Shown here piece after piece: positions 1 through 49,167 of a DNA stretch of 64,000 nt. Position 1 is the first letter of the stretch. Every line of letters starts with the position of its first letter. Where the stretch lies: positions 1,910-65,909 of the forward strand of contig JACRGF010000007.1 in assembly GCA_016212395.1 (NCBI GenBank), given 5' to 3'. This stretch comes from Candidatus Micrarchaeota archaeon (GTDB taxonomy: Archaea; Micrarchaeota; Micrarchaeia; Burarchaeales; JACRGF01). The translations under genes and the position numbers were made by a program. Below the pieces are notes generated by a model that had not been told where the DNA came from, searched no databases, and was given only the letters and a program-made list of their open reading frames with translations.

Positions 1-1066
1 GGAGGGACGAGTGCGCTTTCTCCGGAGGCAAGCCAATAGCAGTGAGAACGTGGGAAGGCTTTAAGTCATGTGAAGAGCACGCAGAGCCTGTTGAAGCAGC
101 AATCCCGCGGTCGCTCAAGTAGAGCACAATGCCTTCGCCTTCAATAAAGTCAAATCCGAAGTTCGCGTTGTTCGGCAAGCGGTTTTCGCGCGAGCCATTC
201 AGCCAACTGCCTTCAACCTTCAAAACTCCGTGAATCAATTTATCACGCAGGCGTTTTTCGCGCTCTGCTTCCTTCTCGAGATTTTCCTGCGCGAGCCTGC
301 TCGCTTCTGCGAAGCCAACGATGCCGGAAATGTTTTCAGTTCCTGAACGCAATCCGCGCTCGTGCCCGCCACCGAAATTAATTGATTCGATGGGCGTGCC
401 CTTGCGCACGAAGAGCAGCCCGACTCCCTTCGGGCCGTACAGTTTGTGCGATGAAGCTGAAAGCAAGTCAACGTTCAAATCGTTCACGTTAGTTGAAAGC
501 TTGCCGAACGTCTGCACGGCATCAGTGTGAAAAAGAATGCTTTTCCTGCGCGCGAGTTCGCCGATTTGCTTTATTGGCTGGATGGAGCCGATTTCGTTGT
601 TCGCGTGCATTATTGAAATCAGGATTGTTTCCGGAGTAATTGCGTTCTCGACGCTTGAAACTGAAACGAAGCCGTCTTTGGAAACAGGCAAGTATGTTAC
701 AGAAAAGCCTTCTTTTCTTTCGAGATGCTGGATCGCATGCAGGACAGCGTGGTGCTCTATTTGAGTAGTAATAATGTGTTTGCCTTTCCCTTCGCGCTTG
801 AACCTGCGCACAGTGCCGAGGATAGCAAGGTTGTCGCTTTCTGTTCCTCCTGAAGTGAAGAAGACTTCTTCTTTAGTGCATGAAAGAGCCTGCGCGAGCT
901 TCTCCCGCGCTTCATCCAGGGCTTTTTCAGCTTCCAATCCGAACGAGTGCATGCTCGCAGAATTGCCGAACGTTTTGGTGAAGAAGGGAAGCATTGCTTT
1001 CAGCACTCGCTTGTCAACCGGAGTGGTCGCAGCGTGGTCAAGATAAATTCTAGTATCAGCATTCAT
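1..1066 (-). CDS. Cysteine desulfurase (NifS/IscS family), 3' end runs off the window
   Basis: Absent from the ORF track because it is open at the window edge. My minus-strand translation from the start codon (CAT at 1064-1066) gives MNADTRIYLDHAATTPVD...FTSGGTESDN...SASSHKLYGPKGVG...GGGHERGLRSGTEN...STGSACSS. This contains the PLP-lysine SxHK motif and the catalytic Cys loop. Confidence 0.85.
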   Translation of the reverse strand, partial: MNADTRIYLDHAATTPVDKRVLKAMLPFFTKTFGNSASMHSFGLEAEKALDEAREKLAQALSCTKEEVFFTSGGTESDNLAILGTVRRFKREGKGKHIITTQIEHHAVLHAIQHLERKEGFSVTYLPVSKDGFVSVSSVENAITPETILISIMHANNEIGSIQPIKQIGELARRKSILFHTDAVQTFGKLSTNVNDLNVDLLSASSHKLYGPKGVGLLFVRKGTPIESINFGGGHERGLRSGTENISGIVGFAEASRLAQENLEKEAEREKRLRDKLIHGVLKVEGSWLNGSRENRLPNNANFGFDFIEGEGIVLYLSDRGIAASTGSACSSHDLKPSHVLTAIGLPPEKAHSSL

Positions 1067-18314: not shown

Positions 18315-19829
18315 TTATAAGAACGCTTCCACGTCCTGCTTTTTCTGTTCTTCCACTTGCTCGAATTTTTTCGCGAGTGATTCAAGCGTTTCAGATTTTG
18401 AAGCGTTGCGCGAGCGACGCGAGCGGATTTTCACGAAAATCGGGTAGGAAACAGCCTCGCCGAGAATAATCGCCTCGCCAACGCGCAGAGTGCTAATCGC
18501 GTTCGCCATGTTCTGGTCAATGCTCTCGCAACTCTCAGCAATATGCTTCACGTCGTAAGGGTTCGTAATGCGGAAGATAATATTGGAATTGCACTGGGAA
18601 AGCGCAGTAGTGGAAAGATACTTCGGGCGCTGGGAAATCAAGCATAAGCTCGCGCCGAACTTTCTCCCCTCTCGCGCAATCAAATTAATCACAGGCTTTG
18701 AAAGCGCTTCAAACTTAGACAACCGCTCTGGAGCAAAATTATGCGCTTCCTCAACAAGCAAAACGAACGGCGGGATTTTGCCTTTCTTTCTTGCCTTGAA
18801 CAGCCTGCGCGCAAAATAAGCGACAATCAACTGCTTGCGCTTCGGGTTGTCCAAATCACTCAAGTCCAACACGCACAGCCTGCCTGGAAGCGCGAGTTGC
18901 TTCAACGAAGGATTGTCCGCCTTGCCAAACAAATTAAGAGCCTTCAACTGGTGCAAGTGCGTGAGCAGAATAGGCTTTACGTTCTCCTTAATCTCGCTTT
19001 CAGCAACGCGCTGGATAACTTCAGGCAAGTCGAACGGCTCCTGCTTGTCCTTCATCTCGCGCTTCAAATCATAGAGGATGACTTCCAACTCCCTGCGCGC
19101 AGAACCAGAAAGCTCTGGAACGAATTCAGCAAGCGTCTGGGGGGAAAGCTTGTGCAACGCAATCTTGATTTTCTTGCCTTGAAAAACACTCGCCCTGTCC
19201 CCATACTGGCCTGACGCAAAACCAACGTACTCGCCGTGAATGTCCACGATGACAGACGCAATCCTGCCGTGCTCAGGCTTGCGCTCAAGCAACTCTTCAA
19301 TGAGGCAGGACATGAAATAAGATTTTCCACTTCCCGAAATTCCGAGTACGCTCAAGTGCTTCTGCAATAAATTATTCATTTTCACTTTCACTTCAACGTC
19401 GTGGTTTTGAAGCTTGCCCAAATTCAAGCCGTCATCAACAAAACCCAGGAACCTGCGCAACTGCTCCTCGTCAGCAGAAAAAACTTTCTCTCCCGGAGCA
19501 GCAGGGAAAGTGGAACGCAAAAGAAAATCGTTTTGAAACACGCCTAATGCTTTTACGCACGCGACAGTGTACTCCCAGTCAGTGGTTGGAAAGTTTTCAG
19601 CAATAGGCGCAGAACGCGAGTACTCTGCAACAGACTCGGCGCGCTCGAAATACCTGTTCGCGCGCGTAATGTCAGTAACAGCACCGAACAACAAGCCGTC
19701 GTCAGTGCGCGTCTGCACAAACTGGCCTTTGCGCACCCTGCTCGAATTAACAACAAAATGAAAAGCGCCAGTGCTCGGATCCTCGAAAGTAGAAATAACA
19801 GTGCCCAACTCTATTTGACTGGAAGCCAT
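18315..19829 (-). CDS. herA: HerA-type hexameric DNA helicase/translocase (FtsK-HerA superfamily)
   Basis: 504-aa ORF with Walker A LGISGSGKSYF and Walker B FVLLVEEAHNF, plus a HAS-barrel-like N-terminus. Confidence 0.85.
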   Translation of the reverse strand: MASSQIELGTVISTFEDPSTGAFHFVVNSSRVRKGQFVQTRTDDGLLFGAVTDITRANRYFERAESVAEYSRSAPIAENFPTTDWEYTVACVKALGVFQNDFLLRSTFPAAPGEKVFSADEEQLRRFLGFVDDGLNLGKLQNHDVEVKVKMNNLLQKHLSVLGISGSGKSYFMSCLIEELLERKPEHGRIASVIVDIHGEYVGFASGQYGDRASVFQGKKIKIALHKLSPQTLAEFVPELSGSARRELEVILYDLKREMKDKQEPFDLPEVIQRVAESEIKENVKPILLTHLHQLKALNLFGKADNPSLKQLALPGRLCVLDLSDLDNPKRKQLIVAYFARRLFKARKKGKIPPFVLLVEEAHNFAPERLSKFEALSKPVINLIAREGRKFGASLCLISQRPKYLSTTALSQCNSNIIFRITNPYDVKHIAESCESIDQNMANAISTLRVGEAIILGEAVSYPIFVKIRSRRSRNASKSETLESLAKKFEQVEEQKKQDVEAFL

Positions 19830-19907
19830 GAGAAAAAAATGGTTTTAAGAGTATAAAAATGTTGTGAGGGGAGACAGCCAGTGGGAAAAAAGGAAAAAAA
19901 ACAACTA

Positions 19908-19965
19908 TAGCAAACCACGAAAGTAATGCGACACGAGTATAGTAACTCCTTCTCGTGGTTTGCTA
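19908..19965. other. 13-bp perfect inverted repeat (TAGCAAACCACGA ... TCGTGGTTTGCTA) with a 32-nt loop
   Basis: Read directly from the sequence. On the minus strand it is followed by the T-tract tagttgttttttttcctttttt. This is a candidate terminator or the 3' end of an ncRNA between the kinase gene and herA. Confidence 0.4.
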
Positions 19966-20138
19966 GACGCAGAGTCGAACACGACGAAGTCGGGTAAACA
20001 AAATTACTTTTCGGCTCTGCTGTAAACGAATGCACTCTAAAAAATGAATGCGGCTCATGCCACGTTTTTTAGGTTTTTTTGCGATTCTCTTCGTGCAGTG
20101 AAATGAGTGGGCATGCGAGGAATTCTTGCCTTCAACAA

Positions 20139-21353
20139 CTACAATTTTTCCACAACGCTTTTCTTTTCATGCAAAACAGGCAAAGCAAATTTGAATTGCT
20201 TGCCTTGAAGGAATTGCGTTAGTTCAGAGAGTGTTGGGAAACATTTTTTTTCTGCTTCCAAGCGAAAGCATGTTGAAGCAGTGCTGAACAACAGGCATTC
20301 TTCAACGCTTAACTGGATTGGCGCTTCAACGTCGAGCAGCCTCTTGCGCACTGCCAAAGCCAATGCGAGCGCTCCGCACAATGTATCACCAGCGCCAACT
20401 GTCCGCCTTGCCTTCACTTCAACAGAAGGAATCCTTCGAGAAGAAGTGTGAGAAATGATTTGAGAGAAATTCTTGGTGTGGAGAAGAATGGGGCAACGCA
20501 AACGCTCGAAAACAAACAAAGCAGCCTCTTCAACCTTCCTTTCCTTCCAGCCGAGCAGCTCGGCAAACCTTTTCGCTTCAACCTCGTTCATTGAAAGCAA
20601 GCCAATCAACGAACGCGCGCCAATGCGGGCGCTTTCAAGCAATTCCAGCATTTGCTTTTCAATTTTAGAATCGCTTCCACTCGTGCAATCCACCATCATC
20701 AAACCTGAGAAACTGGCTTGCCCTTGCTTCACTGCCTCAACCAACCCTTTCAACGCAGGAGAACGCAAGGAAAGAAAACCAAGCACGCCCGCAGTTTCGA
20801 GTTTTTTTCCTGCAGTTGAAGCAAGCTCTTCAAAAGAATGCTCTCGAGGCTGAGGTCCGCGGAGAATAGTGTTGTCGCCAGCCTGCTCTACCACTAAATT
20901 GAAAGACTGGTTGTCGCTCTCGTCGAATAAAACAAAGTCTGTTCGCACTCCGTTCGCTTCTTTTGCTTCAACGTCTCTCACCAAATTTCGTTCAATCAAA
21001 TCGCGTTCATCATTCCGAAAAACTCGAGTGGCGAGAAACGTTTTCAAGCAGGATTTGCCAGCAAGAGTCGCGCATGCTTTCGAAGCAATGCCTCCGTGGC
21101 CCCCGAACCTGACGCTCAAGCAAAAGCCATCCAAACGCTTTTTTTCAGCAACAGGACCGAACGCCTTTGAAGCATCAGCATTAGGAGGAATGGCGACAAC
21201 GCCATCGCGCACTACGTTGGAAGCGAACAAAACTTCCAAAAAATTGTTTGTTGAACTGAGGTGCACTAGAGCGTTGGCCATCTTTTCAACTACTTCAACT
21301 GCCTTATCAGCATCGCTCACGCAGAACAAGAACAGAAAGCAGTATTTAAACAA
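20139..21353 (-). CDS. ADP-dependent sugar kinase family (glucokinase/phosphofructokinase-like, ribokinase fold)
   Basis: The motifs SMNEVEA (NExE) and the C-terminal RTVGAGDTL (GxGD) have the spacing expected for ADP-PFK/GK. The start is uncertain. Confidence 0.55.
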   Translation of the reverse strand: MFKYCFLFLFCVSDADKAVEVVEKMANALVHLSSTNNFLEVLFASNVVRDGVVAIPPNADASKAFGPVAEKKRLDGFCLSVRFGGHGGIASKACATLAGKSCLKTFLATRVFRNDERDLIERNLVRDVEAKEANGVRTDFVLFDESDNQSFNLVVEQAGDNTILRGPQPREHSFEELASTAGKKLETAGVLGFLSLRSPALKGLVEAVKQGQASFSGLMMVDCTSGSDSKIEKQMLELLESARIGARSLIGLLSMNEVEAKRFAELLGWKERKVEEAALFVFERLRCPILLHTKNFSQIISHTSSRRIPSVEVKARRTVGAGDTLCGALALALAVRKRLLDVEAPIQLSVEECLLFSTASTCFRLEAEKKCFPTLSELTQFLQGKQFKFALPVLHEKKSVVEKL

Positions 21354-21417
21354 CTGTAATTAGCGAGTATATAAAAGAAAACAAGAACAGGCTTGCCAAA
21401 CAAAAAGATTATCGTAA

Positions 21418-21888
21418 TTACAGCCCGGCTTGTTCTGCTTCAGAAGCAGGCACAACAGCACCATGCGCGTTCAACGCAGCATAAATCGCGTGGCATGCTG
21501 CTTTGTCTGCGTCGCGCATTTTCTCGTTTTTCATTCCGTAAAAAGCAATCACCAAAACATGCACGCCGCGATCACGGCAGTTCGCATCAGCACCGTCGCA
21601 AAGCATGCGTTCAACGCCATCAACATTCATTTTTTTGACTGCGTCAATCAAGCGAGCGTTCAACTTGAGTTTACGCTGAGCATCTTCAGCCACGCCAGCT
21701 CCAGCGGAAAGAAGCAGGCCCACTAGAGGAGCATCAGTGTTTCGTATTGCTTTGGAAAGCGCGCGTTCAGGATCAAACTCTGCCTCTTTTCCAAGCGCAC
21801 GCGCGAACCAAGCAGGAGTTCCGCCAGCTGAAGCTATTGCCTGAAATTGTTTTAACTTTGCAGGAAGTATGCGCTGTTGAATGCTCAT
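21418..21888 (-). CDS. Ankyrin-repeat-like protein
   Basis: 156-aa ORF: AIRNTDAPLVGLLLSAGAGV ... LIDAVKKMNVDGVERMLCDGADANCRD. Confidence 0.5.
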   Translation of the reverse strand: MSIQQRILPAKLKQFQAIASAGGTPAWFARALGKEAEFDPERALSKAIRNTDAPLVGLLLSAGAGVAEDAQRKLKLNARLIDAVKKMNVDGVERMLCDGADANCRDRGVHVLVIAFYGMKNEKMRDADKAACHAIYAALNAHGAVVPASEAEQAGL

Positions 21889-21950
21889 AAACTCACAAGA
21901 TAATTAACGCGTTTCTGCAATATAAATGTATGCGCGTGCAAACCGTCCAT

Positions 21951-22994
21951 TCACCTGAACGGCCTGTTGTTTCTCCTCAACTTGAGCGAGCTTGGGCTCA
22001 AGCCAGTGTGCATGCTCAACTCTCGGTAAGCACGCTCTAACTCCATTGGCTCGAGCGCAGCGCGCAAGTCTGCTTCAATCAACACTGCAGGGTAAGCATA
22101 CTTCTTGTTTATCGCCGAGAGAGACTGGACGACGGAAGCGACTTTTCCGATTTCAGCGTTGGAAAAAAATTCTATGCGCACGGGCTGGTCTTCAACAGCA
22201 GGCTTCAAGTAACAAACGCACAGTTTCTCCCCTATTCCCCCAAAGTCTTTCAACACTTGGTGCTCGCGCGGAGAACGAGAATAACGAAAAGCAAAACTCC
22301 TCTCTCCCTGCTTCAGCAGGAAATTAAGAAAAATAGTGTCATTCGAACGATCGAGCACGCTATTATTGCCGGCAATTCTTGAAACCAGTTCGATGAAGCG
22401 CTTGCCCCTGCTGTCCTTAATCACGCCGACAATCGCGCACTTGCTTTCCTCGCAGGTGGAATAGAGCTGCTTGTGCAAAGAAACAACTTCACAGTAATAG
22501 TCGTAGAGCGGATTGTCTTCGCTCGGCTTGTCTGAAATCTGGGGAACGAGCGAACCGTCAACAAACAAAAAACCAGGCGCCCATTTTTTCACGCACTCAA
22601 TCGAACACTCTACTTCCTTCTTCAACCGGAACAAAGACTTGTGCAAATTAAACTCGTGCGCTTCCAAAGAAAAAAGAGTGTCAGTATCAACCTGCGGGAG
22701 AGCGTTCGGATGGTACTTGTGCGAAGAGAGCTTGCCTTTCTCGTAAGAAAACAAAACACCGACAGCACGCGAAAGCACGAGGTCAAAGCCTTGGTACTCC
22801 TGCGCGAGCAACCCCCCGTCAACAGCGCAAACGCTCCCAGAAAACTGGAGGGGGGAAACAGAGTGAATTAGGTTTTTCTCCAATGCATCCTGAAAACTAG
22901 TCTCGCCAGTGCCGCGCAGGCTCTCTGCAAGCACGCGCCTGTCGCTTTCAAGCTGCTTGATGTTCTCGGCAATCTCGGCAATGCGTTCACGCAT
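21951..22994 (-). CDS. nurA: NurA 5'-3' nuclease
   Basis: Sequence VCAVDGG...FVDGSL... with NurA-like length. The start was set at MRERIAEIAE (the track ORF starts at 23036 and would overlap pth2). Confidence 0.7.
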   Translation of the reverse strand: MRERIAEIAENIKQLESDRRVLAESLRGTGETSFQDALEKNLIHSVSPLQFSGSVCAVDGGLLAQEYQGFDLVLSRAVGVLFSYEKGKLSSHKYHPNALPQVDTDTLFSLEAHEFNLHKSLFRLKKEVECSIECVKKWAPGFLFVDGSLVPQISDKPSEDNPLYDYYCEVVSLHKQLYSTCEESKCAIVGVIKDSRGKRFIELVSRIAGNNSVLDRSNDTIFLNFLLKQGERSFAFRYSRSPREHQVLKDFGGIGEKLCVCYLKPAVEDQPVRIEFFSNAEIGKVASVVQSLSAINKKYAYPAVLIEADLRAALEPMELERAYRELSMHTGLSPSSLKLRRNNRPFR

Positions 22995-23026
22995 GAATTT
23001 AAATGAGTGGGTGAAAAGATAAAAAC

Positions 23027-23389
23027 ATGCATTCAAATGAAGAAGTCAAGCAAGTCATCGTAGTGCGCAAAGACTTGAAAATAGGCAAGGGAAAGCTTGC
23101 AGCGCACGCTGCACACGCGAGCCTCGAAGCATACAAGAAAGCAAAAGCGAAAGACGAGGCGGCAGTTGAAGAATGGGAAGCGGGTGGGTGCAAAAAAATA
23201 GTGGTAAGCGTGGAGAATGAAAAAGAATTAGTAGAATTGTTCGAGAGAGTGAAGAAAGAAATCCCTTCAGCACTCATCAAAGACGCCGGGCACACGCAAA
23301 TAGAGCCGGGAACAATAACAGCGCTGGGAATAGGCCCGTGGAAAGAAGGGAAAATAAACGAGTACACTGGAAAACTGAAGCTGCTGTAG
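23027..23389 (+). CDS. pth2: Peptidyl-tRNA hydrolase, archaeal type
   Basis: Sequence KQVIVVRKDLKIGKGKLAAHAAHAS...IKDAGHTQIEPGTITALGIGP. Confidence 0.9.
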   Translation: MHSNEEVKQVIVVRKDLKIGKGKLAAHAAHASLEAYKKAKAKDEAAVEEWEAGGCKKIVVSVENEKELVELFERVKKEIPSALIKDAGHTQIEPGTITALGIGPWKEGKINEYTGKLKLL

Positions 23390-32948: not shown

Positions 32949-33629
32949 TCACACGAGCTTGCTCAAGACGCGAGTTAGTTCGCTCATTTTCCTTATTTTA
33001 TAATCTGCTTCGGGCCCTGTCGTTTTCGCGAACGCTCCAGCAACAATGCGCACTGTGTGCATGCCTGCTTCCCTCGCAGGCACAATATCCTTGTCTTTTC
33101 TGTCTCCCACCATTACGAGCTCGCTTGGCTTGAGCTTCAGCTTGCGTGCGATGCGCGAGTAAAACTTTTTGCTTTTCATGCACTCCAAGTCTTCGCTCAC
33201 GAACACGTCGTCAAAAAAATGCGCCAGTCCCAAGCGTATCAGCTTGTCCCATTGCTTGAGCGTCCTGCCTTCAGACGCAACGTACAATTCGTATCCCGCG
33301 TCGCGTAGGCGCACTAGAGTTTCAGGCACTTCAGGGAACGGCTGGATGGAGTGCTTTGCGTTGTGGTAAGCAGCAACTCCTGCAGCAATAATTCTTGCTT
33401 TCAGCCTTTTCTCTACTTTCAGCTCGTGCACGAGCACGTTCAAGTGCCCGGGGTAATTCGAGCCGTGCTTTTCAACTATTTTTTGAAGCAACGCGAAAAT
33501 TTTTTTCGTGTCCTGCTTCAAGCCCATGCGCTTCATCGCGTGAACAGCTTGCATTCTCGCCAATTCAGAAAACTCGCTGCTCGCAAACAACGTGTCATCA
33601 ATATCCAGCAACACTGCCTTAATTCCCAT
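32949..33629 (-). CDS. HAD-superfamily hydrolase
   Basis: Sequence MGIKAVLLDIDDTLF (DxDxT) ... MVGDRKDKDI. Confidence 0.8.
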   Translation of the reverse strand: MGIKAVLLDIDDTLFASSEFSELARMQAVHAMKRMGLKQDTKKIFALLQKIVEKHGSNYPGHLNVLVHELKVEKRLKARIIAAGVAAYHNAKHSIQPFPEVPETLVRLRDAGYELYVASEGRTLKQWDKLIRLGLAHFFDDVFVSEDLECMKSKKFYSRIARKLKLKPSELVMVGDRKDKDIVPAREAGMHTVRIVAGAFAKTTGPEADYKIRKMSELTRVLSKLV

Positions 33630-33901
33630 ACGCGCACCTTCAAGCAAAACTTAAACGTTTCGAATCGTTTTGACTTGTTTTGCAGTAGTTTCGACCACTT
33701 GAAGCAATTCAAAACTGCATAAGCAATACAGCTGCAAAACAACTTAAACAACAATTCACACAAGCAATCAAAACTTCTCGAAACAAACCAAAGCAATTCC
33801 TGCAAATCATACACGCAAAACAATCCAGCAATGCTATAGCAAATTCTCTCGAACAAACTATAAAACTGTATCTTTTAAATAGCCTGATGCATACTCCTCG
33901 C

Positions 33902-34489
33902 ATGCAAGCAATGCGTGGGATAGAAGGCAGGCAAAGTCCTGTGCAGGCACAAGCAACAAGTCCACCTCGTTTTAAGCATTCTGCGAGCATAGCTGGCGCT
34001 TGCTTCAAGTCTTTAATGCAGCACGCGCGGCAGCACGCGAGCATGCCTAAGTCTGCAAGAAAAAACAGGGGTGTTGAGGCTGGAACTACTTATGCGCTAA
34101 CAATGCTCCCATCCATGTCTTACTTGCTTGTGCGTAGTTGGCAGCTTGCAGTTAACAGAGTGAATATTTTTACTTTTTTCGACTCAGGCGTGTTTATTGG
34201 TGCAAGCGCATGCTCACTCGCATTAACCGGCGCAGAAGAATTGAGAACCAGAATCAGGCAAGCAGAGTCATTTGCTTCAAGCACTTTTCGCACGCTCGCT
34301 ACTGCAGCAATAGGCGGTGCTGCCAGCATTCTCAGTTTAACTATTCTGAAGAACCCTGCTAACGACTTTGAAATCGACCGTTTTATACTCAGCACAAGCG
34401 TTGGCGCGTTCGTGATTGCCATTATCGCTACTTTCGCTGAAGCGTTCAGAGGCGTAAAAAAGAAGATAACTGGAACCGTTACACAGTAA
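33902..34489 (+). CDS. Hypothetical membrane protein
   Basis: About 3 hydrophobic helices in the C-terminal half. The TATA box ttttaaatag (33873-33882) sits about 24 nt upstream of the ATG at 33902. Confidence 0.4.
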   Translation: MQAMRGIEGRQSPVQAQATSPPRFKHSASIAGACFKSLMQHARQHASMPKSARKNRGVEAGTTYALTMLPSMSYLLVRSWQLAVNRVNIFTFFDSGVFIGASACSLALTGAEELRTRIRQAESFASSTFRTLATAAIGGAASILSLTILKNPANDFEIDRFILSTSVGAFVIAIIATFAEAFRGVKKKITGTVTQ

Positions 34490-34496
34490 ATTTTTT

Positions 34497-34528
34497 CTAC
34501 CATCCGCCGAATGTTGCTTGTTTTCTCC
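34497..34528. repeat. Direct repeat, left copy, flanking the TA cassette (relic copy of the polB 3' end)
   Basis: ctaccatccgccgaATgttgcttgttttcTcc here versus ctaccatccgccgaGCgttgcttgttttcCca at 35109-35140. Its reverse complement encodes EKQATFGGW*, compared with the polB end GKQATLGGW*. Confidence 0.8.
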
Positions 34529-34601
34529 TGGCAGAATTCACGAGGCTAAAGATGCAAACGCTTATTAACTTGTTATTAACAATTATTAACAAGGTGTTAA
34601 T

Positions 34602-34838
34602 ATGGTGTATGCAGTGATTGATATTTCCGAGCATGCGAACAGGCTTTTGAACATCGTGAAAGCCAAGCATGGCTTGTCTAACAAGTCTGAAGCAATAGAC
34701 TTGGTGATGAACGTTTACGAGGAGGAGGTTCTCGAGCCTGAGCTTCGGCCTGAGTACGTGAAAAAACTCGCGCGCGCGGGAAAAGAGAAGAGCGTTAAAG
34801 TAAAGAATTTCGCGAAAGAGTTCAAGCTAGAGGGATAA
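34602..34838 (+). CDS. Antitoxin of a RelE-type TA pair (archaeal small antitoxin)
   Basis: 78-aa ORF immediately upstream of the RelE-like gene (1-nt gap). The direct repeat ttattaaca-a-ttattaaca lies in its promoter region at about 34572-34590. Confidence 0.6.
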   Translation: MVYAVIDISEHANRLLNIVKAKHGLSNKSEAIDLVMNVYEEEVLEPELRPEYVKKLARAGKEKSVKVKNFAKEFKLEG

Positions 34839-34839
34839 C

Positions 34840-35106
34840 GTGTATTCATTAGAGCTCAAGCAAGGCGTTTACGTAACGTTCAAGAAACTCGAAAAGAAGG
34901 GCAAGAAGAAACTTGAGATAATCAATAACAAGATTCAAGAGATTCTCGAAAATCCAAAACGCTTCAAGCCATTGCGCGCGCCAATGCAGAACCTGCGCAG
35001 GGTGCACATCGACAAATCTTTCGTGCTTGTCTATGAAATAAACGAGCAGGCAAAAACAGTAGTTGTTTTAGACTACGACCACCATGACAACGTCTATAAG
35101 CACTAA
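34840..35106 (+). CDS. RelE/ParE-family toxin
   Basis: 88-aa ORF with a GTG start: KPLRAPMQNLRRVHIDKSFVLVYEINEQAKTVVVLDYDHHDNVYK. Confidence 0.75.
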   Translation: MYSLELKQGVYVTFKKLEKKGKKKLEIINNKIQEILENPKRFKPLRAPMQNLRRVHIDKSFVLVYEINEQAKTVVVLDYDHHDNVYKH

Positions 35107-35108
35107 GC

Positions 35109-38100
35109 CTACCATCCGCCGAGCGTTGCTTGTTTTCCCAGTCCTTTCAACTCGTGCTCGTCCACTCCTAATTCGCTTAGTATTTTCATTACTGACGGGA
35201 GAATTTGGTTTTCAATGTAGTAATTCGGGTCGTAGTCTTTCGCTAATTCCACTACTATTGACCTGTCGCTCACTCGTTCTCCTCCGCTTTTTCCAACAAC
35301 GTAGTCTATTACTGCTCCTTCTTCTATTCGAATTCCTTTTTCTTTCGCCCTGATTGCTGCAGTTACTTCAGGGCTTAGAATTTCATACTTTCCAATCTTC
35401 TTTCTCAACTGCGTGTGTATTACCAGCTTCTCGAGAGGCACTTTCCCTTCCTTCAATTCTTTAATCACTTTCTTGACTATCTCGACTGCTTTTTCCTTGC
35501 TTCCTTTTTTCAGGATGCTTTCAAGCACTGCCGACTGCGTTTCTTTCGCTAAGTCGCTCCAGTCCCTGCGCACCAGTTCGAAACCGCGGATTTTTATTTT
35601 CCCGTCCTCGCGCAACAGCGCATATTTCTTTTTAGCGCCTTTCTCCCCGTCCCCGCTCGCTCCAGTCTTTTTCCCCACAAACACTCCGCGCGGGTAGAAT
35701 GCTTCCAGCTCCAGCTCCATTCCCTTCGGCAGTTCAGCGTTCACTTTCCGCATGAACTCTAACGCTTGCTCGCGTGTTTTTTTTCCCAATTGCAAGAATA
35801 CAGAATCAGTATTATGAAGCAGGATTTGCCCGCACGAGTCAACGAAATTGTGCGTGCCTTCGACGTTCAAGTCATAAACAAAACCATCGTACTCTTGTTC
35901 TTCGATTTGTGCATGCAGTTTGGGAGTGTGTTTCGAGCAAGTGGTGATAATATACGTCTGCTTATCTTGCCTAAACCTCATCGAATATTTTTTTCCAAGC
36001 ATTGGCAGCAGCAGCGTGAGCCCGCAAGCGAGTTGAAGCGATTTTGTTTCCAGCGTGAAGTTGTTTTGCTTGTATTCTTCAGTGTAGCGTGGGTCTTTAG
36101 TGATCGAGCCGTCGCCTTTGAGAAAGTTTTCCAAAATTATTTTCCGGTATTTTTCAGGAACATGAAAAGCAAATCCAGGAAGCTTTTTTCCAGAGCTTTT
36201 CTGCCCGCACAACTGCTTGAAGAAAACCGCTGAAAGCGCGTTCATCATCTGCAGTTTTAGCGTCTTGTCCACGTAAGTCACGCTATTCTTTTTTCCCTTC
36301 ATCGTAGTGTAATTAAGTTGCCTTTGTTTTTTCATTGATTGGATTATGCTTGCCTTCACGTTTGAAAAAAGTGAGTGGTAATCCTTCTTGAGCTGTTCCA
36401 GCCACGCTTTGTCACTTGCAGAAATGCTTGCGCCTAGCCTGCTCGTTGTAGTTTCCGGAGTGGAAGCGCTTCCTTCTGCAATGTAAGCGCCGAGAAGCCT
36501 GCAAAGCGCTTCAAATTCCTTGCTCTCAACTTGGATAAACCGCTTTAGCAGCACTGTGGATTTTTTTCGCATCCAGCCGAAAAACACATGTTCTCCATTC
36601 GGAGTGAGCTGGACTCTGCGCGTTTTGCTTCTATTCTTGTAAACAAATGCATTCTCATATCGTTTAAGCAATTCATAGAAATCTATTTTCTGCATTTGTT
36701 TGAGGGGTGGAATTCGTTCGACTCGCACCATCGCGTTTTCAAGCATTTCTCGAGGTTTTGCTTCGACGAGCTGATTATTTTTTTCTATCATAAACGAGTG
36801 GTCTTCAGTTACCCTCGTTTCCCCGTATTTCTGGCTGACTTTGAAAACCCGCTTGTTCGCCTTGTGCCTAATCGCTTCTTTTACGTTTCCCCACGTTGTT
36901 TTGCCAGTCAGCTGGTCAACGCCAAGCGCTTTAAATCCTTTCAAGCTTGCAACTTCTTTTTCTCCGACTTTTTCAGAGCGCTCGGAATTTTCTTCAAACA
37001 ATTCGCTTATCCTCTTGATTTCAACCATTCCTTGCGGGTTGAGCAGCGTCACGAACCTGTCGCCAGTTACGCTATCCCCATACGTTACCTCAAACCCTTC
37101 TTTCCCTGCTTTTTCAATCACGTCATTAATATAATGCCTGCCCCACGCTGTAATCGCTTCCCCGCACTCGCGCGAGTACCACCTGGCGCGCGCGAAGCGG
37201 AACATTCCGTACACGGAGTTTGAAAGAATTTTCAACGCTTGAGAGCGCGCTTCAAGCATCTTCAATTTCCCTTCGTCCTTGCATTCTCTTATTTCTCCCT
37301 TCAGTTTTTTTCTCCTCTCAACCAACTCCTCGAGCGTGTTTGGAATCAATCCTTTCTTTTTCGAGCAGAACGCGTGCCCGTTCGGCGAAACGAACGCTTC
37401 CTTTTTCGAACAGCACGAGCAATTGAGCGTCGCGTTATCCACGTTGTGCGACGTGATGATTGAAGGGTACAGCGATCGGAAGTCGAACACTGCCAAATTC
37501 TCGTAAATTCCAGGCGTAGGCATTTTCACGAACGCTCCTTCAATTACTGCATCCCTTCTCCCTTCAGCCTCGTCGCCTCCGGGCTTGTTCGGCGCAATCA
37601 TTCCCGCATTGTGCGCCTTGTTTAGCAAAAGCATTTCAACAAGCTGTCCGCTCGTCATTCCCGCCACATCAAACAAAGGAAGCTTCACCAACTTGCACAA
37701 CTCGTACTGTAAAGGCATGATTTTCAACGCGATTTCGCGCGTTGCCTGCGCGTCTTTCAGCGAATACTCCGCTAATTTCGGCAGTTGCTTTTCGTCGTCC
37801 CACATGCGCCAAATCTCGCGTTTTTCCACTTCCTCCTTCCACCCTTCCTTTTCTCCTGCAACCAACTCCGAGTACGCTTCCCCGAGCGTGTACCTGAAGC
37901 CCTTCAACGCTCCTATCATTCCCATAAACCGAATGACGGGGTACAAGTCAACGTGAATCCTCCCCGTAATCTTTGCCGTATTCACCATTCCTCTTCTTCT
38001 CAAAAGAATTCCGCTCCCATCTCTTCCAAAGCTCAAGCTTTTTCCAAGCGCTTTCGCTCGCGCCTTCAAGTAAGAAAAGTCAAACGCTGCTGAATTATAG

Positions 38101-38801
38101 CCCACAAGCAACTCAACGTCTTTTTCTTTCAACAGCCTGCAAAACTCTGCAAGCATCGCCTTCTCGTCCGCAAGAATTTTCACGAACTTCCGTGCGATGG
38201 GCTTCCACGAGAGCACTCCGCTCTCCTCGTCGGCAAAACTCACCATCACCACTGGGTCTATATTCTCGCGTGGCATTCCGCTCGGGTTGTACGTTTCAAT
38301 GTCAAAAGACATCAAGCGAAGGCTTGGAACAACTTCCTTCTCCTCTCCAATGCTCACGACGTTCTTTCCTTTTCTCTTTACTTCATACTCGTTGAACGGC
38401 GTGAGCTTTTTGTCAATCAAGTACCTTCTTCCGAACAAAATGTTGTCTTCATACGTTGCGCCGAACTCGCGCGCCTTCTCGCGCAAAAGCACGACGTGCG
38501 AAGGGTGCACGCACACTGCCCGCAGAACTTTCTTTTTCTCTCCAAGCAACTCCTTTTCAACTTCCTCTATCCTCTCAAACTTCACTTCATTTCCCTGGTT
38601 GTCCTTCACGCTTATTTTTTCAAGCTCTTTCCTCGCGTGCTCTAGTTCTCCCTTCTTGTTCACGTCAACAAAAAAATAGGGCTCGAACTTCTCGTCGTAG
38701 AGCCTGAAGAAACGCTTGCGCTTGAACACTAACCTAATCACTGCCCTTCCTGCCTTCGTAATGTAATCTGCATCAATAAGCATTGCCCGCAAGCTCTTCA
38801 T
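35109..38801 (-). CDS. polB: Family B DNA polymerase (intein-containing precursor, 1230 aa; extein about 809 aa)
   Basis: Exo I FDIETYN, Pol A DFRSLYPSII and Pol B KILSNSVYG are present. Pol C is split as YGD | intein | TDSVF. There is a C-terminal PIP-like KQATLGGW. Confidence 0.95.
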   Translation of the reverse strand: MKSLRAMLIDADYITKAGRAVIRLVFKRKRFFRLYDEKFEPYFFVDVNKKGELEHARKELEKISVKDNQGNEVKFERIEEVEKELLGEKKKVLRAVCVHPSHVVLLREKAREFGATYEDNILFGRRYLIDKKLTPFNEYEVKRKGKNVVSIGEEKEVVPSLRLMSFDIETYNPSGMPRENIDPVVMVSFADEESGVLSWKPIARKFVKILADEKAMLAEFCRLLKEKDVELLVGYNSAAFDFSYLKARAKALGKSLSFGRDGSGILLRRRGMVNTAKITGRIHVDLYPVIRFMGMIGALKGFRYTLGEAYSELVAGEKEGWKEEVEKREIWRMWDDEKQLPKLAEYSLKDAQATREIALKIMPLQYELCKLVKLPLFDVAGMTSGQLVEMLLLNKAHNAGMIAPNKPGGDEAEGRRDAVIEGAFVKMPTPGIYENLAVFDFRSLYPSIITSHNVDNATLNCSCCSKKEAFVSPNGHAFCSKKKGLIPNTLEELVERRKKLKGEIRECKDEGKLKMLEARSQALKILSNSVYGMFRFARARWYSRECGEAITAWGRHYINDVIEKAGKEGFEVTYGDSVTGDRFVTLLNPQGMVEIKRISELFEENSERSEKVGEKEVASLKGFKALGVDQLTGKTTWGNVKEAIRHKANKRVFKVSQKYGETRVTEDHSFMIEKNNQLVEAKPREMLENAMVRVERIPPLKQMQKIDFYELLKRYENAFVYKNRSKTRRVQLTPNGEHVFFGWMRKKSTVLLKRFIQVESKEFEALCRLLGAYIAEGSASTPETTTSRLGASISASDKAWLEQLKKDYHSLFSNVKASIIQSMKKQRQLNYTTMKGKKNSVTYVDKTLKLQMMNALSAVFFKQLCGQKSSGKKLPGFAFHVPEKYRKIILENFLKGDGSITKDPRYTEEYKQNNFTLETKSLQLACGLTLLLPMLGKKYSMRFRQDKQTYIITTCSKHTPKLHAQIEEQEYDGFVYDLNVEGTHNFVDSCGQILLHNTDSVFLQLGKKTREQALEFMRKVNAELPKGMELELEAFYPRGVFVGKKTGASGDGEKGAKKKYALLREDGKIKIRGFELVRRDWSDLAKETQSAVLESILKKGSKEKAVEIVKKVIKELKEGKVPLEKLVIHTQLRKKIGKYEILSPEVTAAIRAKEKGIRIEEGAVIDYVVGKSGGERVSDRSIVVELAKDYDPNYYIENQILPSVMKILSELGVDEHELKGLGKQATLGGW
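35811..37073 (-). mobile_element. Intein (421 aa) with a LAGLIDADG homing-endonuclease domain, inserted in polymerase motif C
   Basis: It begins with Ser (SVTGDRFVTLL) directly after YGD and ends LLHN, followed by a +1 Thr (TDSVF). Internal motifs LLGAYIAEGSAS and ENFLKGDGS are present. Confidence 0.85.
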
Positions 38802-38869: not shown

Positions 38870-40252
38870 ATGGCTCTGGCAAGCAAGAGCGCTAGTGGGA
38901 GAACGCGCGCCGAAAGCAGTAATCAACCTACTGCGCCTAGAACCCGCGCCGTAACTGTTAGAAACAGGCCAGGCGCGCTCGCCCAAACGCCTCCTCGCGC
39001 TTCCGATGCTTCAACTGCTTCTGCTGGAAGAACAGCAACGAAAAAAACAGTGCAGCCTCGCGCAAGCAGAGTAAAAAAACCAGTCAAAACCACTGCTTCT
39101 GTTTCTTCTTCTAATTCGAGGAAACAGCTTGCTGTAGCGCGCAGGGAGTTGAAAGAAAAAACGCGTGCTGCTGAAGAGTTGTCTTCGCGCTTGGACGCTC
39201 TTTCCGCTTCTGTGGCTGTTTTGACGCAAGCTCGCGCTGAAGCAGTAAGGCAAGCGACGTTCGCTGCTGAAGACGCGTTCGCCGCGCAGGCGAAAAACAA
39301 GCGTTTGGAAGAAAAACTCGCTGTATTAGAAAGCACGAGCAGAAAACTGGAGGACACTGAAAAGCGTTTGAATGAAGCGCTTGCAAAACTTTCTTCAGCT
39401 GCTAGACTCACTCGACTAATGGCTGACGCGAACCGCGCTGCATTGAAGGAAAATGATGGTTTGAAAGCGAAAAATGCGCGTGTTGAAAGCGAAGCAGCCC
39501 GAGATAATGCTTCGTTTGAAAATCTTTGCTCTTCACTCCGCGAAGCAGACAGGGACGCGCAACGTTTGCGCAAGAGCGTGGAAGCGCTCTCGAAAGAACG
39601 CATTGAGCTCAAGAAACAGCAGCTCCGAGCGCTCAGGCAGATTGAATCAATGCGCCACGACCGCCAGGAATTATTGCTGGCGCAAACAAAACTTCGAGCT
39701 GTTGAAAAGCAAGTGGATGATTTGGCTGGAGAATTGACTAAAGCGTGCACTGAACTTCAGGCAAAAACGCGTGCAATGGAACTTCTTGAAAAAAACCTTG
39801 CAAATTCAGAGTCTGAACGACAACGCAGCACTGCAAAGAAAGAAGCAGCAGCTTACCTCGTGGCAGAGTTAAAAACGCAACTTGCCAACGCAAAAGATGA
39901 AATCGCGCGCCTCAAGCAGGCTAATCAAGACCTCGCCACTGAAATAGACGCGTTAAGAGACAGCAGCATGCGCGAAAGAGACGCGCGCGGTTTTACAACC
40001 GTAGAAACCAACAGGGCTTTCGAAGGAAGAATACTCGCGCTCGAACAACAATTGGAAGCTTCAAGAACGCAAGTACAAGAGCTTCTAAGACAACTAAGCA
40101 CTGCACAAACAGGCAAAACACGAACCAGGCAACTGGAACTGCAACTCGAAGAAGCACGCCACCAACTCACGCTCGCCTTGGAACAAAACACTGGACGAGC
40201 AAGTCCATTAACTGCCTCTGCAAAAACAGGCGAACCTGAAAAGCTAGACTAG
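38870..40252 (+). CDS. Coiled-coil protein with a basic Arg/Thr/Ala/Ser-rich N-tail (paralog 1, no TM)
   Basis: 460-aa ORF. About 80 aa of low-complexity basic tail (GRTRAESSNQPTAPRTRAVTVRNRPG...RTATKKTVQPRASRVKKP), followed by long heptad-like Ala/Glu/Leu/Lys/Arg sequence. Confidence 0.6.
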   Translation: MALASKSASGRTRAESSNQPTAPRTRAVTVRNRPGALAQTPPRASDASTASAGRTATKKTVQPRASRVKKPVKTTASVSSSNSRKQLAVARRELKEKTRAAEELSSRLDALSASVAVLTQARAEAVRQATFAAEDAFAAQAKNKRLEEKLAVLESTSRKLEDTEKRLNEALAKLSSAARLTRLMADANRAALKENDGLKAKNARVESEAARDNASFENLCSSLREADRDAQRLRKSVEALSKERIELKKQQLRALRQIESMRHDRQELLLAQTKLRAVEKQVDDLAGELTKACTELQAKTRAMELLEKNLANSESERQRSTAKKEAAAYLVAELKTQLANAKDEIARLKQANQDLATEIDALRDSSMRERDARGFTTVETNRAFEGRILALEQQLEASRTQVQELLRQLSTAQTGKTRTRQLELQLEEARHQLTLALEQNTGRASPLTASAKTGEPEKLD

Positions 40253-40265
40253 CAAACTCGCGCCT

Positions 40266-40274
40266 TTAAATACG
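40266..40274 (+). promoter_or_regulatory. TATA box for coiled-coil paralog 2
   Basis: Upstream sequence ccTTTAAATACgaGAAAAGCCa, with the ATG at 40295. Confidence 0.55.
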
Positions 40275-40294
40275 AGAAAAGCCAACACTTTACT

Positions 40295-41101
40295 ATGCCT
40301 AAGCAAGCAAGAACTCCAGCTAGAACTGGCGGAACACTTGAACAAGCAACTGCCATTGGAATACGCAAACAAGCATCTACCTCCAGAAAGCCTGCTGCAA
40401 CTGGAAGGCAACGTGCTCCAGCGTCCACTGCTTCCCGCGCAACTGCTTCTGCAGAAAGAACTGCTGCTAAAAGAACTGCACGGCCTCGCGCAAGCAAAGC
40501 AAGTGCTCCAGCGTCTTCAGCCTCTCTCGAACAATTCCAAAAAGAGCGCGCTGAGCTCGAACGCAGAATTGAAGACTTGAAAGCAGAAGTTGGCGCTTTA
40601 AGGGAATACATTCGAACTAAAGTTGAAGGCGGGAATGCAGGAGTTAGTGAAATGATTGTTAGAATGAAAGAGGATTTAACACGCGTTTCCAGAGAACTCG
40701 AGCTTTCGAACGCTCGCCTCTCGCTGTTGAATGATGCTTCAAGCAAACTAACTTCAAGGCGTGATGCTGCTGTAGAGAAAGAAGAAACTGCTTTAGCTGA
40801 AGCATCACGCCTGCGCGGACAAGTTTCTTTCTTAACTCAACAACTCGAGGAAGCGCGAGTGCAAATAGCTTTAATGCAGCCTGAACTCGAACAACTGCGC
40901 AAAGCCAGAGAAATAGTTGAAAAACAAGCTGAACTCGAGAAATTCGAGCAGAGCAAGAACAAAGCACGCGCTCTCTTTAACACTGCTGTTTTCCTCGCAA
41001 TACTCTCCGGCTTGGTTTTCGCAGGCTCGGTTATCTACGCTCGCCTTGCAACAATGCACGCGACTCAAAACGCTTGCGAGCAAACGACAAATCCACAATA
41101 A
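40295..41101 (+). CDS. Coiled-coil protein with a basic N-tail and C-terminal TM anchor (paralog 2)
   Basis: 268-aa ORF. Tail ARTPARTGG...RKPAATGRQRAP...RTAAKRTARPRASKASAP and C-terminal helix ALFNTAVFLAILSGLVFAGSVIY. Confidence 0.6.
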   Translation: MPKQARTPARTGGTLEQATAIGIRKQASTSRKPAATGRQRAPASTASRATASAERTAAKRTARPRASKASAPASSASLEQFQKERAELERRIEDLKAEVGALREYIRTKVEGGNAGVSEMIVRMKEDLTRVSRELELSNARLSLLNDASSKLTSRRDAAVEKEETALAEASRLRGQVSFLTQQLEEARVQIALMQPELEQLRKAREIVEKQAELEKFEQSKNKARALFNTAVFLAILSGLVFAGSVIYARLATMHATQNACEQTTNPQ

Positions 41102-41111
41102 AACTACTCCC

Positions 41112-41120
41112 TTTAAATAC
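41112..41120 (+). promoter_or_regulatory. TATA box for coiled-coil paralog 3
   Basis: Upstream sequence ccTTTAAATACttGAAAACGCa, with the ATG at 41143. Confidence 0.55.
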
Positions 41121-41142
41121 TTGAAAACGCATAACTCTACTT

Positions 41143-42666
41143 ATGACTGCACAGCGTGGGGGAAGCCGAACACCCAGAAGGGAAGCTATTCTTAACGCTC
41201 CAGCTCGAGCAAGCAGAACTGCTCGCGCCAGTGCGGAAAGCGTTGAAACCGCGCGTGCCGGGCAATCTAAAACAACTGCAGCTGGTTCTCGCGCTGCTAA
41301 AAAAGCTGCCAAGCCCAAGCCTGTTTCAGTGAAAACAACTCGAACGCGCTTGAACAAGCAAATCGATTTACTCAAACAATCATTGCAAGAAAAGCAAAAG
41401 CAATTGGAAGGCATCAACAAGAGAATTGTTGAAGCGAAGAAAGGAAAGAAAATTCCTGCGCAACTCTCTCGCGAAAAGACTGCTGCAGACGCTGAAATTC
41501 AAGTTATTCAAGGACAATTGACTGTTGCGCGCGAGCAATTAAATGCTACTTACAAGCGAAAGCCGGCAAAAAGCAGGGAACAAACACAGGCACAGCTGAA
41601 AGCGCAATCGCCTTTAACTGTTGTTGCGGTTGATGGAGACTTGCTTGGAGCTGCGAAAACAGAGGCGAAACTCGAACTGTCGCGTGCGAATGGCGAGTTT
41701 GAACGCGTGTCCAAGGAATTAGAAGACGCGCTAAAGCGCGTGGAGAAAGTGGTTGCTGAACGCAACTCGCTCGCTGAAGCGAAAACAGCTGCTGAACTGC
41801 TCATAACTAAAACTGCTCAAGACCTCGAGGCAGTAAGGAAAGAATTAGACGAGTTGAAAGCACGCAAGCCACTTCAAATCGAGAAAATCGTGTTCGACCA
41901 TAATGAATTAACTGAAGCTCGAGCAAGAATTCGGGAATTGGAAGGAAGATTAGATTCTACTGGAGACAGTGATTCAACGTCTGCGCCTTCAACTTCTTCT
42001 AGAACGTCGAAGAAAGCGAGGATTGAACAGCTTGAAGCGCAGTTGCAAGAGAGGGAACAGCGGTTGGAGCGGGCTGAAAAAACGCTTCAAGAAATTTCAT
42101 TGAAAATGAGCGATTTTCTGAAGGGCTTCCGCGGGGACTCTGACAGTGAAAAAACTGAAGTTGTAAACGTTAGAAAGCAAATCTCCACGCTGTTTGCAAT
42201 AATCAGGAGGCAACGCGAGATTATAGAAACATTAAGGAAACGCGTTGAAACTGTTAATGCTGAATTTGCAGAGCTTAAAGCAAAAACCACTCCTCCAAGC
42301 ATATCTGAAGTTGTTGGCTTGAGAAAGCACGCGGGCAGGATGGAGTGGCTTGCCATCGGGCTGTTTATCGCGCTTGGGGCGAGCAACGTTGGCTGGATGG
42401 CTTACAACAAGTTCTACAAGCCTGCAGCGCAAGAGCAGACTCTTGGCTATAACGATGCGTACAGTGATTCAGCGCCTAGTGGTTTGCGTGCAGAACCTGA
42501 AACAGCTCGTGGGGCAGCATACGAATTGTTTGATACTACTCCTGAAGAAGTGAGGCAGACGTTGGCTAACGCAGGCAAAAAAACGTTCAGCATTGTAGGC
42601 GGCGTGCTTTTGCTGGCTGGTGCAGTGTGGTCGTGGCTTCGTTTCAGGGGCAAGCCTTCTCACTAA
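41143..42666 (+). CDS. Coiled-coil protein with a basic N-tail and two C-terminal TM helices (paralog 3)
   Basis: 507-aa ORF. Tail GGSRTPRREA...ARASRTARASAE...SRAAKKAAKPKP. TM helices WLAIGLFIALGASNVGWMAY and FSIVGGVLLLAGAVWSWL. Confidence 0.6.
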   Translation: MTAQRGGSRTPRREAILNAPARASRTARASAESVETARAGQSKTTAAGSRAAKKAAKPKPVSVKTTRTRLNKQIDLLKQSLQEKQKQLEGINKRIVEAKKGKKIPAQLSREKTAADAEIQVIQGQLTVAREQLNATYKRKPAKSREQTQAQLKAQSPLTVVAVDGDLLGAAKTEAKLELSRANGEFERVSKELEDALKRVEKVVAERNSLAEAKTAAELLITKTAQDLEAVRKELDELKARKPLQIEKIVFDHNELTEARARIRELEGRLDSTGDSDSTSAPSTSSRTSKKARIEQLEAQLQEREQRLERAEKTLQEISLKMSDFLKGFRGDSDSEKTEVVNVRKQISTLFAIIRRQREIIETLRKRVETVNAEFAELKAKTTPPSISEVVGLRKHAGRMEWLAIGLFIALGASNVGWMAYNKFYKPAAQEQTLGYNDAYSDSAPSGLRAEPETARGAAYELFDTTPEEVRQTLANAGKKTFSIVGGVLLLAGAVWSWLRFRGKPSH

Positions 42667-49018: not shown

Positions 49019-49167
49019 CGGGCCCGACGGGAGTTTCAGGGTTTAGAAGTTTTGATGTTTTGCAGTTTCGCTTGTTTTGAAAATTCTGCCTGAACTTCTA
49101 AACTCTTTCGAACCCGCGACTTCTTGGTCCGAAGCCAAGCGCTCTATCCAAGCTGAGCTACGGGCCC
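49019..49167 (-). tRNA. tRNA-Arg (anticodon UCG) with a 74-nt intron (49033-49106) between positions 59 and 60
   Basis: Minus-strand read: GGGCCCG TA GCTC AGCTTGGATA GAGC G CTTGG CTTCGGA CCAAG AAGTC GCGGG TTCGAA [intron] T CCCGT CGGGCCC G. The acceptor stem is a perfect 7 bp. The intron ends pair as GTTTAGAAGTT/AACTTCTAAAC (11 bp). Confidence 0.75.

Follow-up and report, generated by a model that had tools for sequence, protein, structure and literature searches.

A toxin-antitoxin cassette between duplicated polB gene ends in a Micrarchaeota genome suggests integration without an encoded integrase

In a 64,000-nucleotide stretch of the genome of Candidatus Micrarchaeota archaeon (contig JACRGF010000007.1 of assembly GCA_016212395.1; hereafter the window), the 3′ end of polB, the gene for the family-B replicative DNA polymerase, is present twice, and the two copies enclose a predicted toxin-antitoxin (TA) operon. 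No recombinase gene was found nearby, relatives lacking TA genes at this position carry no second copy of the polB end, and two parallel arrangements were recovered elsewhere, one at another polB and one at a tRNA gene. We read this structure as a miniature cassette without an integrase of its own, made of a TA operon and a mimic of the end of its host gene, that integrated in the manner of a Campbell insertion, a reading to which we give a probability slightly better than even (about 0.55).

The end of polB is duplicated around a toxin-antitoxin operon

The two copies are direct repeats of 31 nucleotides (nt), at window positions 34497-34527 and 35109-35139, that are identical at 28 of 31 positions. 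Their three mismatches fall at 34511/35123 (A/G), 34512/35124 (T/C) and 34526/35138 (T/C), the first two being adjacent. A first-pass annotation of this DNA had described repeats of 31-32 nt with three mismatches, a count that holds over 31 nt but rises to four over 32 nt; because position 32 differs too, a search with the 32-mer at ≤3 mismatches returned only the query itself. Homology breaks off abruptly at both edges, and the 3′ edge is the last base of the polB stop codon. Judged by base composition, ~6e-5 such repeat pairs would be expected across the whole 64-kb window, and the similarity thus exceeds chance, a point on which the annotation had let its own proposal depend. The structure of repeats and cassette was unchanged in independently assembled contigs from four groundwater metagenome runs, whose agreement excludes an assembly artefact.

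The copy proximal to the gene body (35109-35139, minus strand) comprises the last 10 codons and the stop of polB (GKQATLGGW*), within a C-terminus that reads ...GLGKQATLGGW* and ends ...ELKGLGKQATLGGW*. This is the tail that carries the PCNA-interacting protein (PIP) box, and its Q-x-x-L-x-x-W pattern agrees with the polB tails of relatives; judged from its sequence, the proximal copy is the functional gene end, with the PCNA-binding tail intact. The distal copy (34497-34527, minus strand) is a displaced pseudo-tail with no polB body attached. It translates as ...ARRKQATFGGW*, correcting an earlier reading of EKQATFGGW* to RKQATFGGW*. The non-synonymous differences between the two are derived in the distal copy, where Phe replaces the Leu of the PIP box and Arg replaces a conserved Gly. 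Among 105 distinct tails from relatives, the PIP position Q+3 is L, I or M in 95 and F in none, and with Phe in this place the distal copy appears to be without function. No third, older copy of the tail was found beside the neighbouring HAD hydrolase gene or elsewhere in the window. The repeats gave no Rfam match and showed no dyad symmetry, and the hairpin potential of repeats and flanks was no better than that of shuffled window sequence (z +0.6 to +0.8).

Between the repeats lie 580 nt (34529-35108) whose only contents are a DUF2683 antitoxin gene, a RelE/StbE toxin gene and a threefold TTATTAAC operator, and these family matches and operator repeats bear out the initial description of the interval as exactly a TA operon with its promoter. 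One repeat and the operon together make a unit of 612 bp. The promoter/operator region (34529-34601, plus strand) contains TTATTAAC at 34562, 34573 and 34583, the only three copies in the window, spaced by 11 and 10 nt or one helical turn, and is closed by TTAATATGG at the antitoxin start; a similar TTAATA-rich leader is present in homologous cassettes. The antitoxin (34602-34838, plus strand; 78 aa) matches its family in Pfam with 29.8 bits (cutoff 27) and has a host-like codon score of 0.33. The toxin (34840-35106, plus strand; 88 aa), of the RelE/StbE (YafQ-like) mRNA-interferase family, begins with GTG 1 nt past the antitoxin stop and matches NCBIfam TIGR02385 with 34.5 bits (cutoff 27.9), Pfam ParE_toxin with 29.9 bits (cutoff 23) and the PHROG 'RelE-like toxin' with E 1e-12. 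As curated cutoffs are passed, the pair is assigned as a type II TA system with a predicted RelE/StbE toxin and a DUF2683 antitoxin. The toxin gene is convergent with polB, and the two stop codons are 2 nt apart. There is no GC discontinuity at the cassette, the codon usage of both TA genes is host-like, and no terminal inverted repeats pair the ends of the insert.

Parallel cases in other genomes

To survey other polB tails, polB stops were extracted from 159 loci, corresponding to 141 lineages at 95% nucleotide identity, and each locus was searched within 6-10 kb for a second tail, either as the last 30 nt (≤8 mismatches) or as the last 9 residues plus stop. In 140 of these 141 other Micrarchaeota lineages, polB has a single tail and no TA cassette. 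In the comparison with possible empty sites that the first-pass annotation had proposed, TA-less relatives carry one tail rather than both copies; all 140 lineages are distant, at ≤65% identity to the window polB.

The sole exception was locus L072, in which a different TA-like gene pair is bracketed by a duplication of the last 39 nt of polB. Here polB ends at 6308, and the tail copy at 6929-6967 matches it at 35 of 39 nt and ends exactly on the stop codon; both differences within the PIP core are synonymous. The structure is identical in L137, L139 and L170-L179, and was seen in >24 contigs from many samples. Of the two enclosed genes, one encodes a DUF4258-like protein of 89 aa (E 5e-4) and the other a protein of 98 aa with a Zn-ribbon and an AbrB/MazE-like region (E 2e-3). 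PDB, PHROG and NCBIfam offered no support for this pair beyond sub-threshold matches, and the AlphaFold model of the toxin, at a pLDDT of 39, was unusable. Because the L072 cassette belongs to a different family, has the opposite orientation and is flanked by unrelated repeat DNA, we regard the L072 and window events as independent and the site as something other than a conserved DNA motif.

An adjacent double mismatch is found in both polB-tail duplications, at 35123-35124/34511-34512 in the window and at 6293-6294/6952-6953 in L072. Counted from the stop-codon end these are nucleotides 15-16, the first base of the PIP Leu codon and the wobble base that precedes it. The probability that the L072 positions match by chance is ~0.008, in a test made post hoc.

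A blind scan of ~2 Mb for repeat pairs ending on the stop codon of a long open reading frame (ORF) returned only the two polB cases, window and L072, and gene-end duplications amount to 2 of 142 polB lineages compared to 0 of ~1240 other genes. At other genes, candidate small cassettes between repeated gene ends were rejected, the repeats being paralogues or chance matches. We likewise rejected polB as a general TA hotspot, since across all loci surveyed the small ORFs downstream of it are mostly a conserved non-TA gene pair. This pair lies 0-900 nt downstream of polB in many Micrarchaeota (L020, L026, L045, L051, L113, L129, L133 and others), and its second gene has the motif ...THFINQVALSLSVWG...EGYRIKHGLP.

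The second parallel came from the toxin itself, which has 287 homologues in many archaea and some bacteria. The closest, P0002 at locus L182 (1-839), is 70% identical (toxin at 175-459) and is paired with a DUF2683 antitoxin that is 55% identical to that of the window (491-727). The L182 cassette measures 617 nt and is enclosed by direct repeats of 20 nt without a mismatch (85-104 and 722-741), the number of such pairs expected by chance being ~3e-7. An intron-containing tRNA gene (730-822, minus strand; Rfam 61 bits) contributes its last 12 nt to the second repeat copy, a further 8 nt making up the rest; this copy, which overlaps the tRNA 3′ end, also contains the stop codon of the antitoxin. 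L182 and the window have a common topology: the 3′ end of a host gene, an antiparallel TA cassette of ~0.6 kb flush with that end, and a displaced copy of the end. In L182, however, the gene order is toxin to antitoxin, permuted with respect to the window and all other homologues, and the toxin has a new 6-aa N-terminal extension. Such a permutation would be expected from a circular intermediate whose recombination site lay at another position. The 3′ ends of tRNA genes are classical integration targets, and we take L182 to be decisive for an attachment-site (att)-like interpretation.

The pairing of DUF2683 with RelE is also present in L164, L165, L182, L184, L185 and L186. In L164, L165, L185 and L186 the pair forms one unit within arrays of TA cassettes (HicAB, PIN/VapBC-like, MNT-HEPN and DUF2683-RelE), which span 2093-4470 in L164, 363-3249 in L185 and 3271-4721 in L186 and are separated by repeats of 90-200 nt that are 77-95% alike. 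Because the units of these three arrays are discrete and repeat-separated, the TA pair appears to behave as a portable module. The inter-cassette repeats of L164, L185 and L186 were considered as integron-type attC sites and rejected, as they have no Rfam match and no clear end-to-end hairpin.

Origin of the cassette

In the mechanism that we propose, the cassette would consist of a self-regulated RelE/DUF2683 operon and a site of ~31 nt that mimics the polB 3′ end. Its circular form would recombine with the chromosomal polB tail in a Campbell-type event, carried out either by a site-specific recombinase acting in trans or by the short-homology recombination machinery of the host. Integration would leave polB with a complete and functional PIP-box tail, the proximal copy, while the second tail copy would be displaced 612 nt downstream, where it would be non-coding and drifting, as the change from Leu to Phe in the PIP core suggests. 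TA addiction may then retain the insert, since deletion through the repeats would cost the cell its labile antitoxin. We infer the circular intermediate, the recombination step, the enzyme and the mobility of the unit, since the analysis turned up neither an empty site in a close relative nor an excised form or a recombinase.

Several lines of evidence count in favor of such a mini-cassette. First, the repeat is far beyond chance and has the polB stop codon as its exact boundary, and the two copies enclose nothing but the TA operon. Second, the repeats of 20-39 nt in the window, L072 and L182 fit, in our judgement, the lengths of archaeal att sites. Third, the absence of terminal inverted repeats and of hairpin potential argues against transposon or attC models. 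With repeats of att size, a boundary at the gene end and a reconstituted target, the pattern matches the scar known to be left when an element integrates into a gene's 3′ end. The single tails of TA-less relatives and the parallels L072 and L182 likewise support the att-like integration at the polB 3′ end that had first been suggested.

A number of results weigh against this reading. No enzyme was found: as the first-pass annotation had stated for integrases, none of 35 ORFs scanned in the window matches a Pfam family of integrases, transposases, casposases or Cas1-like proteins, and only the TA operon lies between the repeats, with no integrase inside the element. The distant integrase that the annotation suggested looking for did not turn up either, as a search for tyrosine-recombinase motifs in 160 loci, over 6-10 kb around polB, yielded only spurious antisense ORFs. 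The L182 repeats, too, enclose no recombinase. Nor was a partner element recovered: the window, the 160 polB loci and viral contigs contained no larger element with an att in the polB tail, and the viral contigs no attP-like copies of any of the three repeats; the only match of the two TA proteins to these contigs was one to the toxin, 35% identical. Contigs of the four runs, compared with the locus at 90% and at 80% likeness, contained no excised or cassette-less variant, contigs being prone to drop rare variants, and no related strain. An exact look-up of the window toxin and polB in public assemblies gave no match. The nearest polB genes, at 64-65% identity, are too distant to offer a true empty site. 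Of the parallels, the L072 pair has its TA identity below family thresholds, and the homologous cassettes at L161, L167, L180 and L184 have no flanking repeats. Finally, specificity for polB rests on two lineages, with a Fisher p of ~0.01 that becomes ~0.1 without the discovery case.

The failure to find an integrase would be accounted for if the cassette were the remnant of a larger integrase-bearing plasmid or provirus inserted at a polB attachment site (attB), in which deletions spared the TA module and the two att sites. [quoted passage not shown] However, the TA genes nearly fill the inter-repeat space in all three cassettes (window, L072 and L182), with flanks of 0-73 nt, and each case would need its own deletions running flush with the operon. 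Moreover, no intact element occupies the polB tail in any of the 141 other lineages. We consider a remnant of this kind unlikely.

We judge it more improbable still that the repeats are a target-site duplication, in which a transposase, casposase or Cas1-like enzyme made a staggered cut of ~31-39 nt that was filled in, the distal copy having drifted since. Direct repeats immediately flanking the insert would be expected from such an event, as would non-synonymous differences derived in the distal copy (Phe for the PIP Leu, Arg for the conserved Gly), and Cas1-family integrases are able to make long duplications, 14-15 bp for casposons and a full repeat length in spacer integration. Yet 31-39 nt exceeds the target-site duplications known from transposons, there are no terminal inverted repeats, and the window encodes no transposase or casposase. 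The stop-codon boundary in two independent lineages would have a chance of only ~1/31 × 1/39, and the synonymous nature of both PIP-core differences in L072 is unexpected under neutral decay.

A similarly low probability attaches to homology-facilitated illegitimate recombination or homologous exchange, whereby a donor with the TA genes next to polB would have used polB as anchor, the far join falling ~31 nt upstream of the recipient stop. In its favor, polB offers a long and conserved stretch for anchoring, the window encodes HerA and NurA, the partly synonymous mismatches resemble two alleles of a functional tail, and the TA genes are host-like in codon usage and GC content. Such an exchange, however, requires a donor with TA genes flush against the polB stop, which moves the question back one step, requires the join to fall at similar places in two lineages, and leaves the duplicated tRNA end of L182 unexplained. 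That the repeat arose by chance, by local slippage with no link to the TA genes or as an error of assembly has only its shortness in favor, and the probability is negligible in view of the ~6e-5 pairs expected, the same structure in four runs and the parallels L072 (>24 contigs) and L182.

Genomic neighbourhood of the insertion

The target gene polB (35109-38801, minus strand) encodes a polymerase of 1230 aa interrupted by a LAGLIDADG intein. All relatives matched by its C-terminus are Micrarchaeota (DPANN), at 64-65% identity at best, and no polB relative above 65% was found in genome contigs, metagenome contigs or the protein database. The intein, 421 aa (nt 35811-37073, minus strand), sits within the YGD|TDS polymerase motif (Ser1 ... 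His-Asn/Thr+1), carries LAGLIDADG-type motifs (LLGAYIAEG) and has a codon score of 0.14 compared to 0.36 for the exteins.

The ancestral downstream neighbour of polB is the HAD hydrolase gene (32949-33647, minus strand) at the far edge of the variable region. A HAD gene follows polB on the same strand in seven relatives (L001, L002, L013, L059, L065, L116 and L132), in some with overlapping stop and start codons. In the window the two genes are 1.46 kb apart, with an ORFan and the TA cassette in the gap. In L001 (10690-11400) and L002, the two closest relatives, polB and HAD are separated by a different and unrelated gene, which marks the polB-HAD junction as a variable spot in the clade.

The ORFan, ORF200 (33887-34489, plus strand; 200 aa), is convergent with polB and stops 7 nt short of the distal repeat. 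It has no family and no homologue, its codon score of 0.04 is ambiguous, and it may either belong to the native flank or have been inserted earlier where the polB-HAD synteny is broken. Antisense to it runs an ORF of 127 aa (34120-34503, minus strand), whose ATG arises in the ...GGATGGTAG of the distal repeat; the codon scores of ORF127 and ORF200 are equal and ambiguous and do not distinguish the coding strand. In several relatives the ORF after polB, if taken from its first possible start, begins inside the last polB codons. In the window, where the codon scores of ORF127 and ORF200 are ambiguous, the duplication may conceivably serve to preserve an overlapping downstream start codon, an idea that does not apply to L072.

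Farther away, HerA (DUF87/HAS-barrel) and NurA genes are found at 18315-23036, with a PfkB-like kinase gene and a small ORF between them, and these predicted products show that the window encodes DNA end-resection machinery. At 49109-49167 (minus strand) a 59-nt Rfam tRNA match of 34 bits, just over gathering, was not called by ARAGORN; the 64 kb contain no other tRNA, and this one may be truncated or atypical. Three successive ORFs (460, 268 and 507 aa) at 38870-42666 have no Pfam family, and their products have basic N-termini rich in Ala, Arg, Thr and Ser and long coiled-coil-like regions.

Significance and comparison with known systems

Chromosomal TA modules are notoriously mobile, usually without recognizable insertion scars, and how they move between genomes is poorly understood. 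Here, three independent cassettes holding only TA-type genes were found at duplicated gene ends, two at the PCNA-binding tail of polB and one at a tRNA gene, and one of them has a permuted gene order. Similar cassettes elsewhere suggest that TA pairs can move as minimal integrating units, which provides a testable model in which they could travel as minimal att-bearing circles, mobilized either in trans or through recombination at short homologies. A selfish element may in that case supply an essential replication protein with its last ten codons, which contain the PCNA-interaction motif, and polB would join the short list of protein genes that serve as integration targets in archaea. The case also offers a rare glimpse of the Micrarchaeota mobilome. 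It is conceivable, though we hold it doubtful, that DPANN and other archaea harbor an unrecognized class of mobile elements, TA circles of ~0.6 kb that carry 20-40 nt mimicking an essential gene's 3′ end and home to it without a recombinase of their own. If true, homing into essential gene ends would let TA circles spread autonomously and link them to genes indispensable to the cell.

Among known systems, casposons have terminal inverted repeats, a Cas1 casposase, their own PolB and target-site duplications of 14-15 bp, and insert at the 3′ end of the EF-2 gene or at tRNA genes. The window cassette resembles them as an archaeal insertion with direct repeats at the 3′ end of an essential gene, but has no terminal inverted repeats, casposase or PolB of its own and differs in the length of the duplication, 31-39 nt. 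Nor does it fit a transposon or casposon leaving a duplication of 2-15 bp, no transposase or casposase gene having been found in the window. An integrative mobile element exploiting Xer (IMEX), with its dif-like 28-bp site and inverted arms, was rejected, since the repeat has no dyad symmetry and is wholly different between the two polB lineages.

Other parallels are found among elements without a recombinase of their own. The cis-mobilizable elements (CIMEs) beside the integrative and conjugative elements (ICEs) ICESt1 and ICESt3, at the 3′ end of fda in Streptococcus thermophilus, are bacterial, kilobases long and accompanied by a cognate ICE with shared att sites. Like the window cassette, they lie between direct repeats in which the 3′ end of a protein-coding housekeeping gene is duplicated, have no recombinase gene of their own and leave the target intact. 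The window cassette, in contrast, measures 0.6 kb, holds only a TA operon and belongs to a DPANN archaeon, and searches of the window, the 160 loci and viral contigs revealed neither an integrase nor a partner element for it. Integron cassettes, including the TA cassettes of chromosomal integrons and archaeal clusters of attC sites lacking an integron integrase (CALINs; PMC9668308), are likewise one-operon units of ~0.6 kb with their own recombination site. The recombinase of integron TA cassettes is encoded elsewhere, as that of the window cassette may be, the TA cargo has its own promoter in both, and homologues of the window pair stand in arrays (L164, L185 and L186). The window cassette departs from them in having no attC-type hairpin and no attI or IntI, and in that its recombination site copies the end of a host gene.

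A further comparison is with archaeal elements integrated into the 3′-distal parts of tRNA and protein-coding genes. The text of a survey of these elements gives att lengths of 29-69 bp for those of crenarchaea, places 14 of 68 thaumarchaeal elements in 3′-distal parts of protein genes, and describes its elements as all integrase-encoding, the smallest of them 2.6 kb (PMC6563490). Set against that text, the window cassette stands apart in having no integrase, in its size of ~0.6 kb and in its target, polB not being listed there, whereas it shares with the elements described a repeat in the att range, a targeted gene 3′ end and a gene end supplied by the element (PMC6563490). What is unusual is the size, ~0.6 kb in three cases, and the content, a TA-type pair that fills the unit. 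What we rate as new is an integrase-less, att-flanked element that appears reduced to a bare TA cassette and has the PCNA-binding tail of polB as its target.

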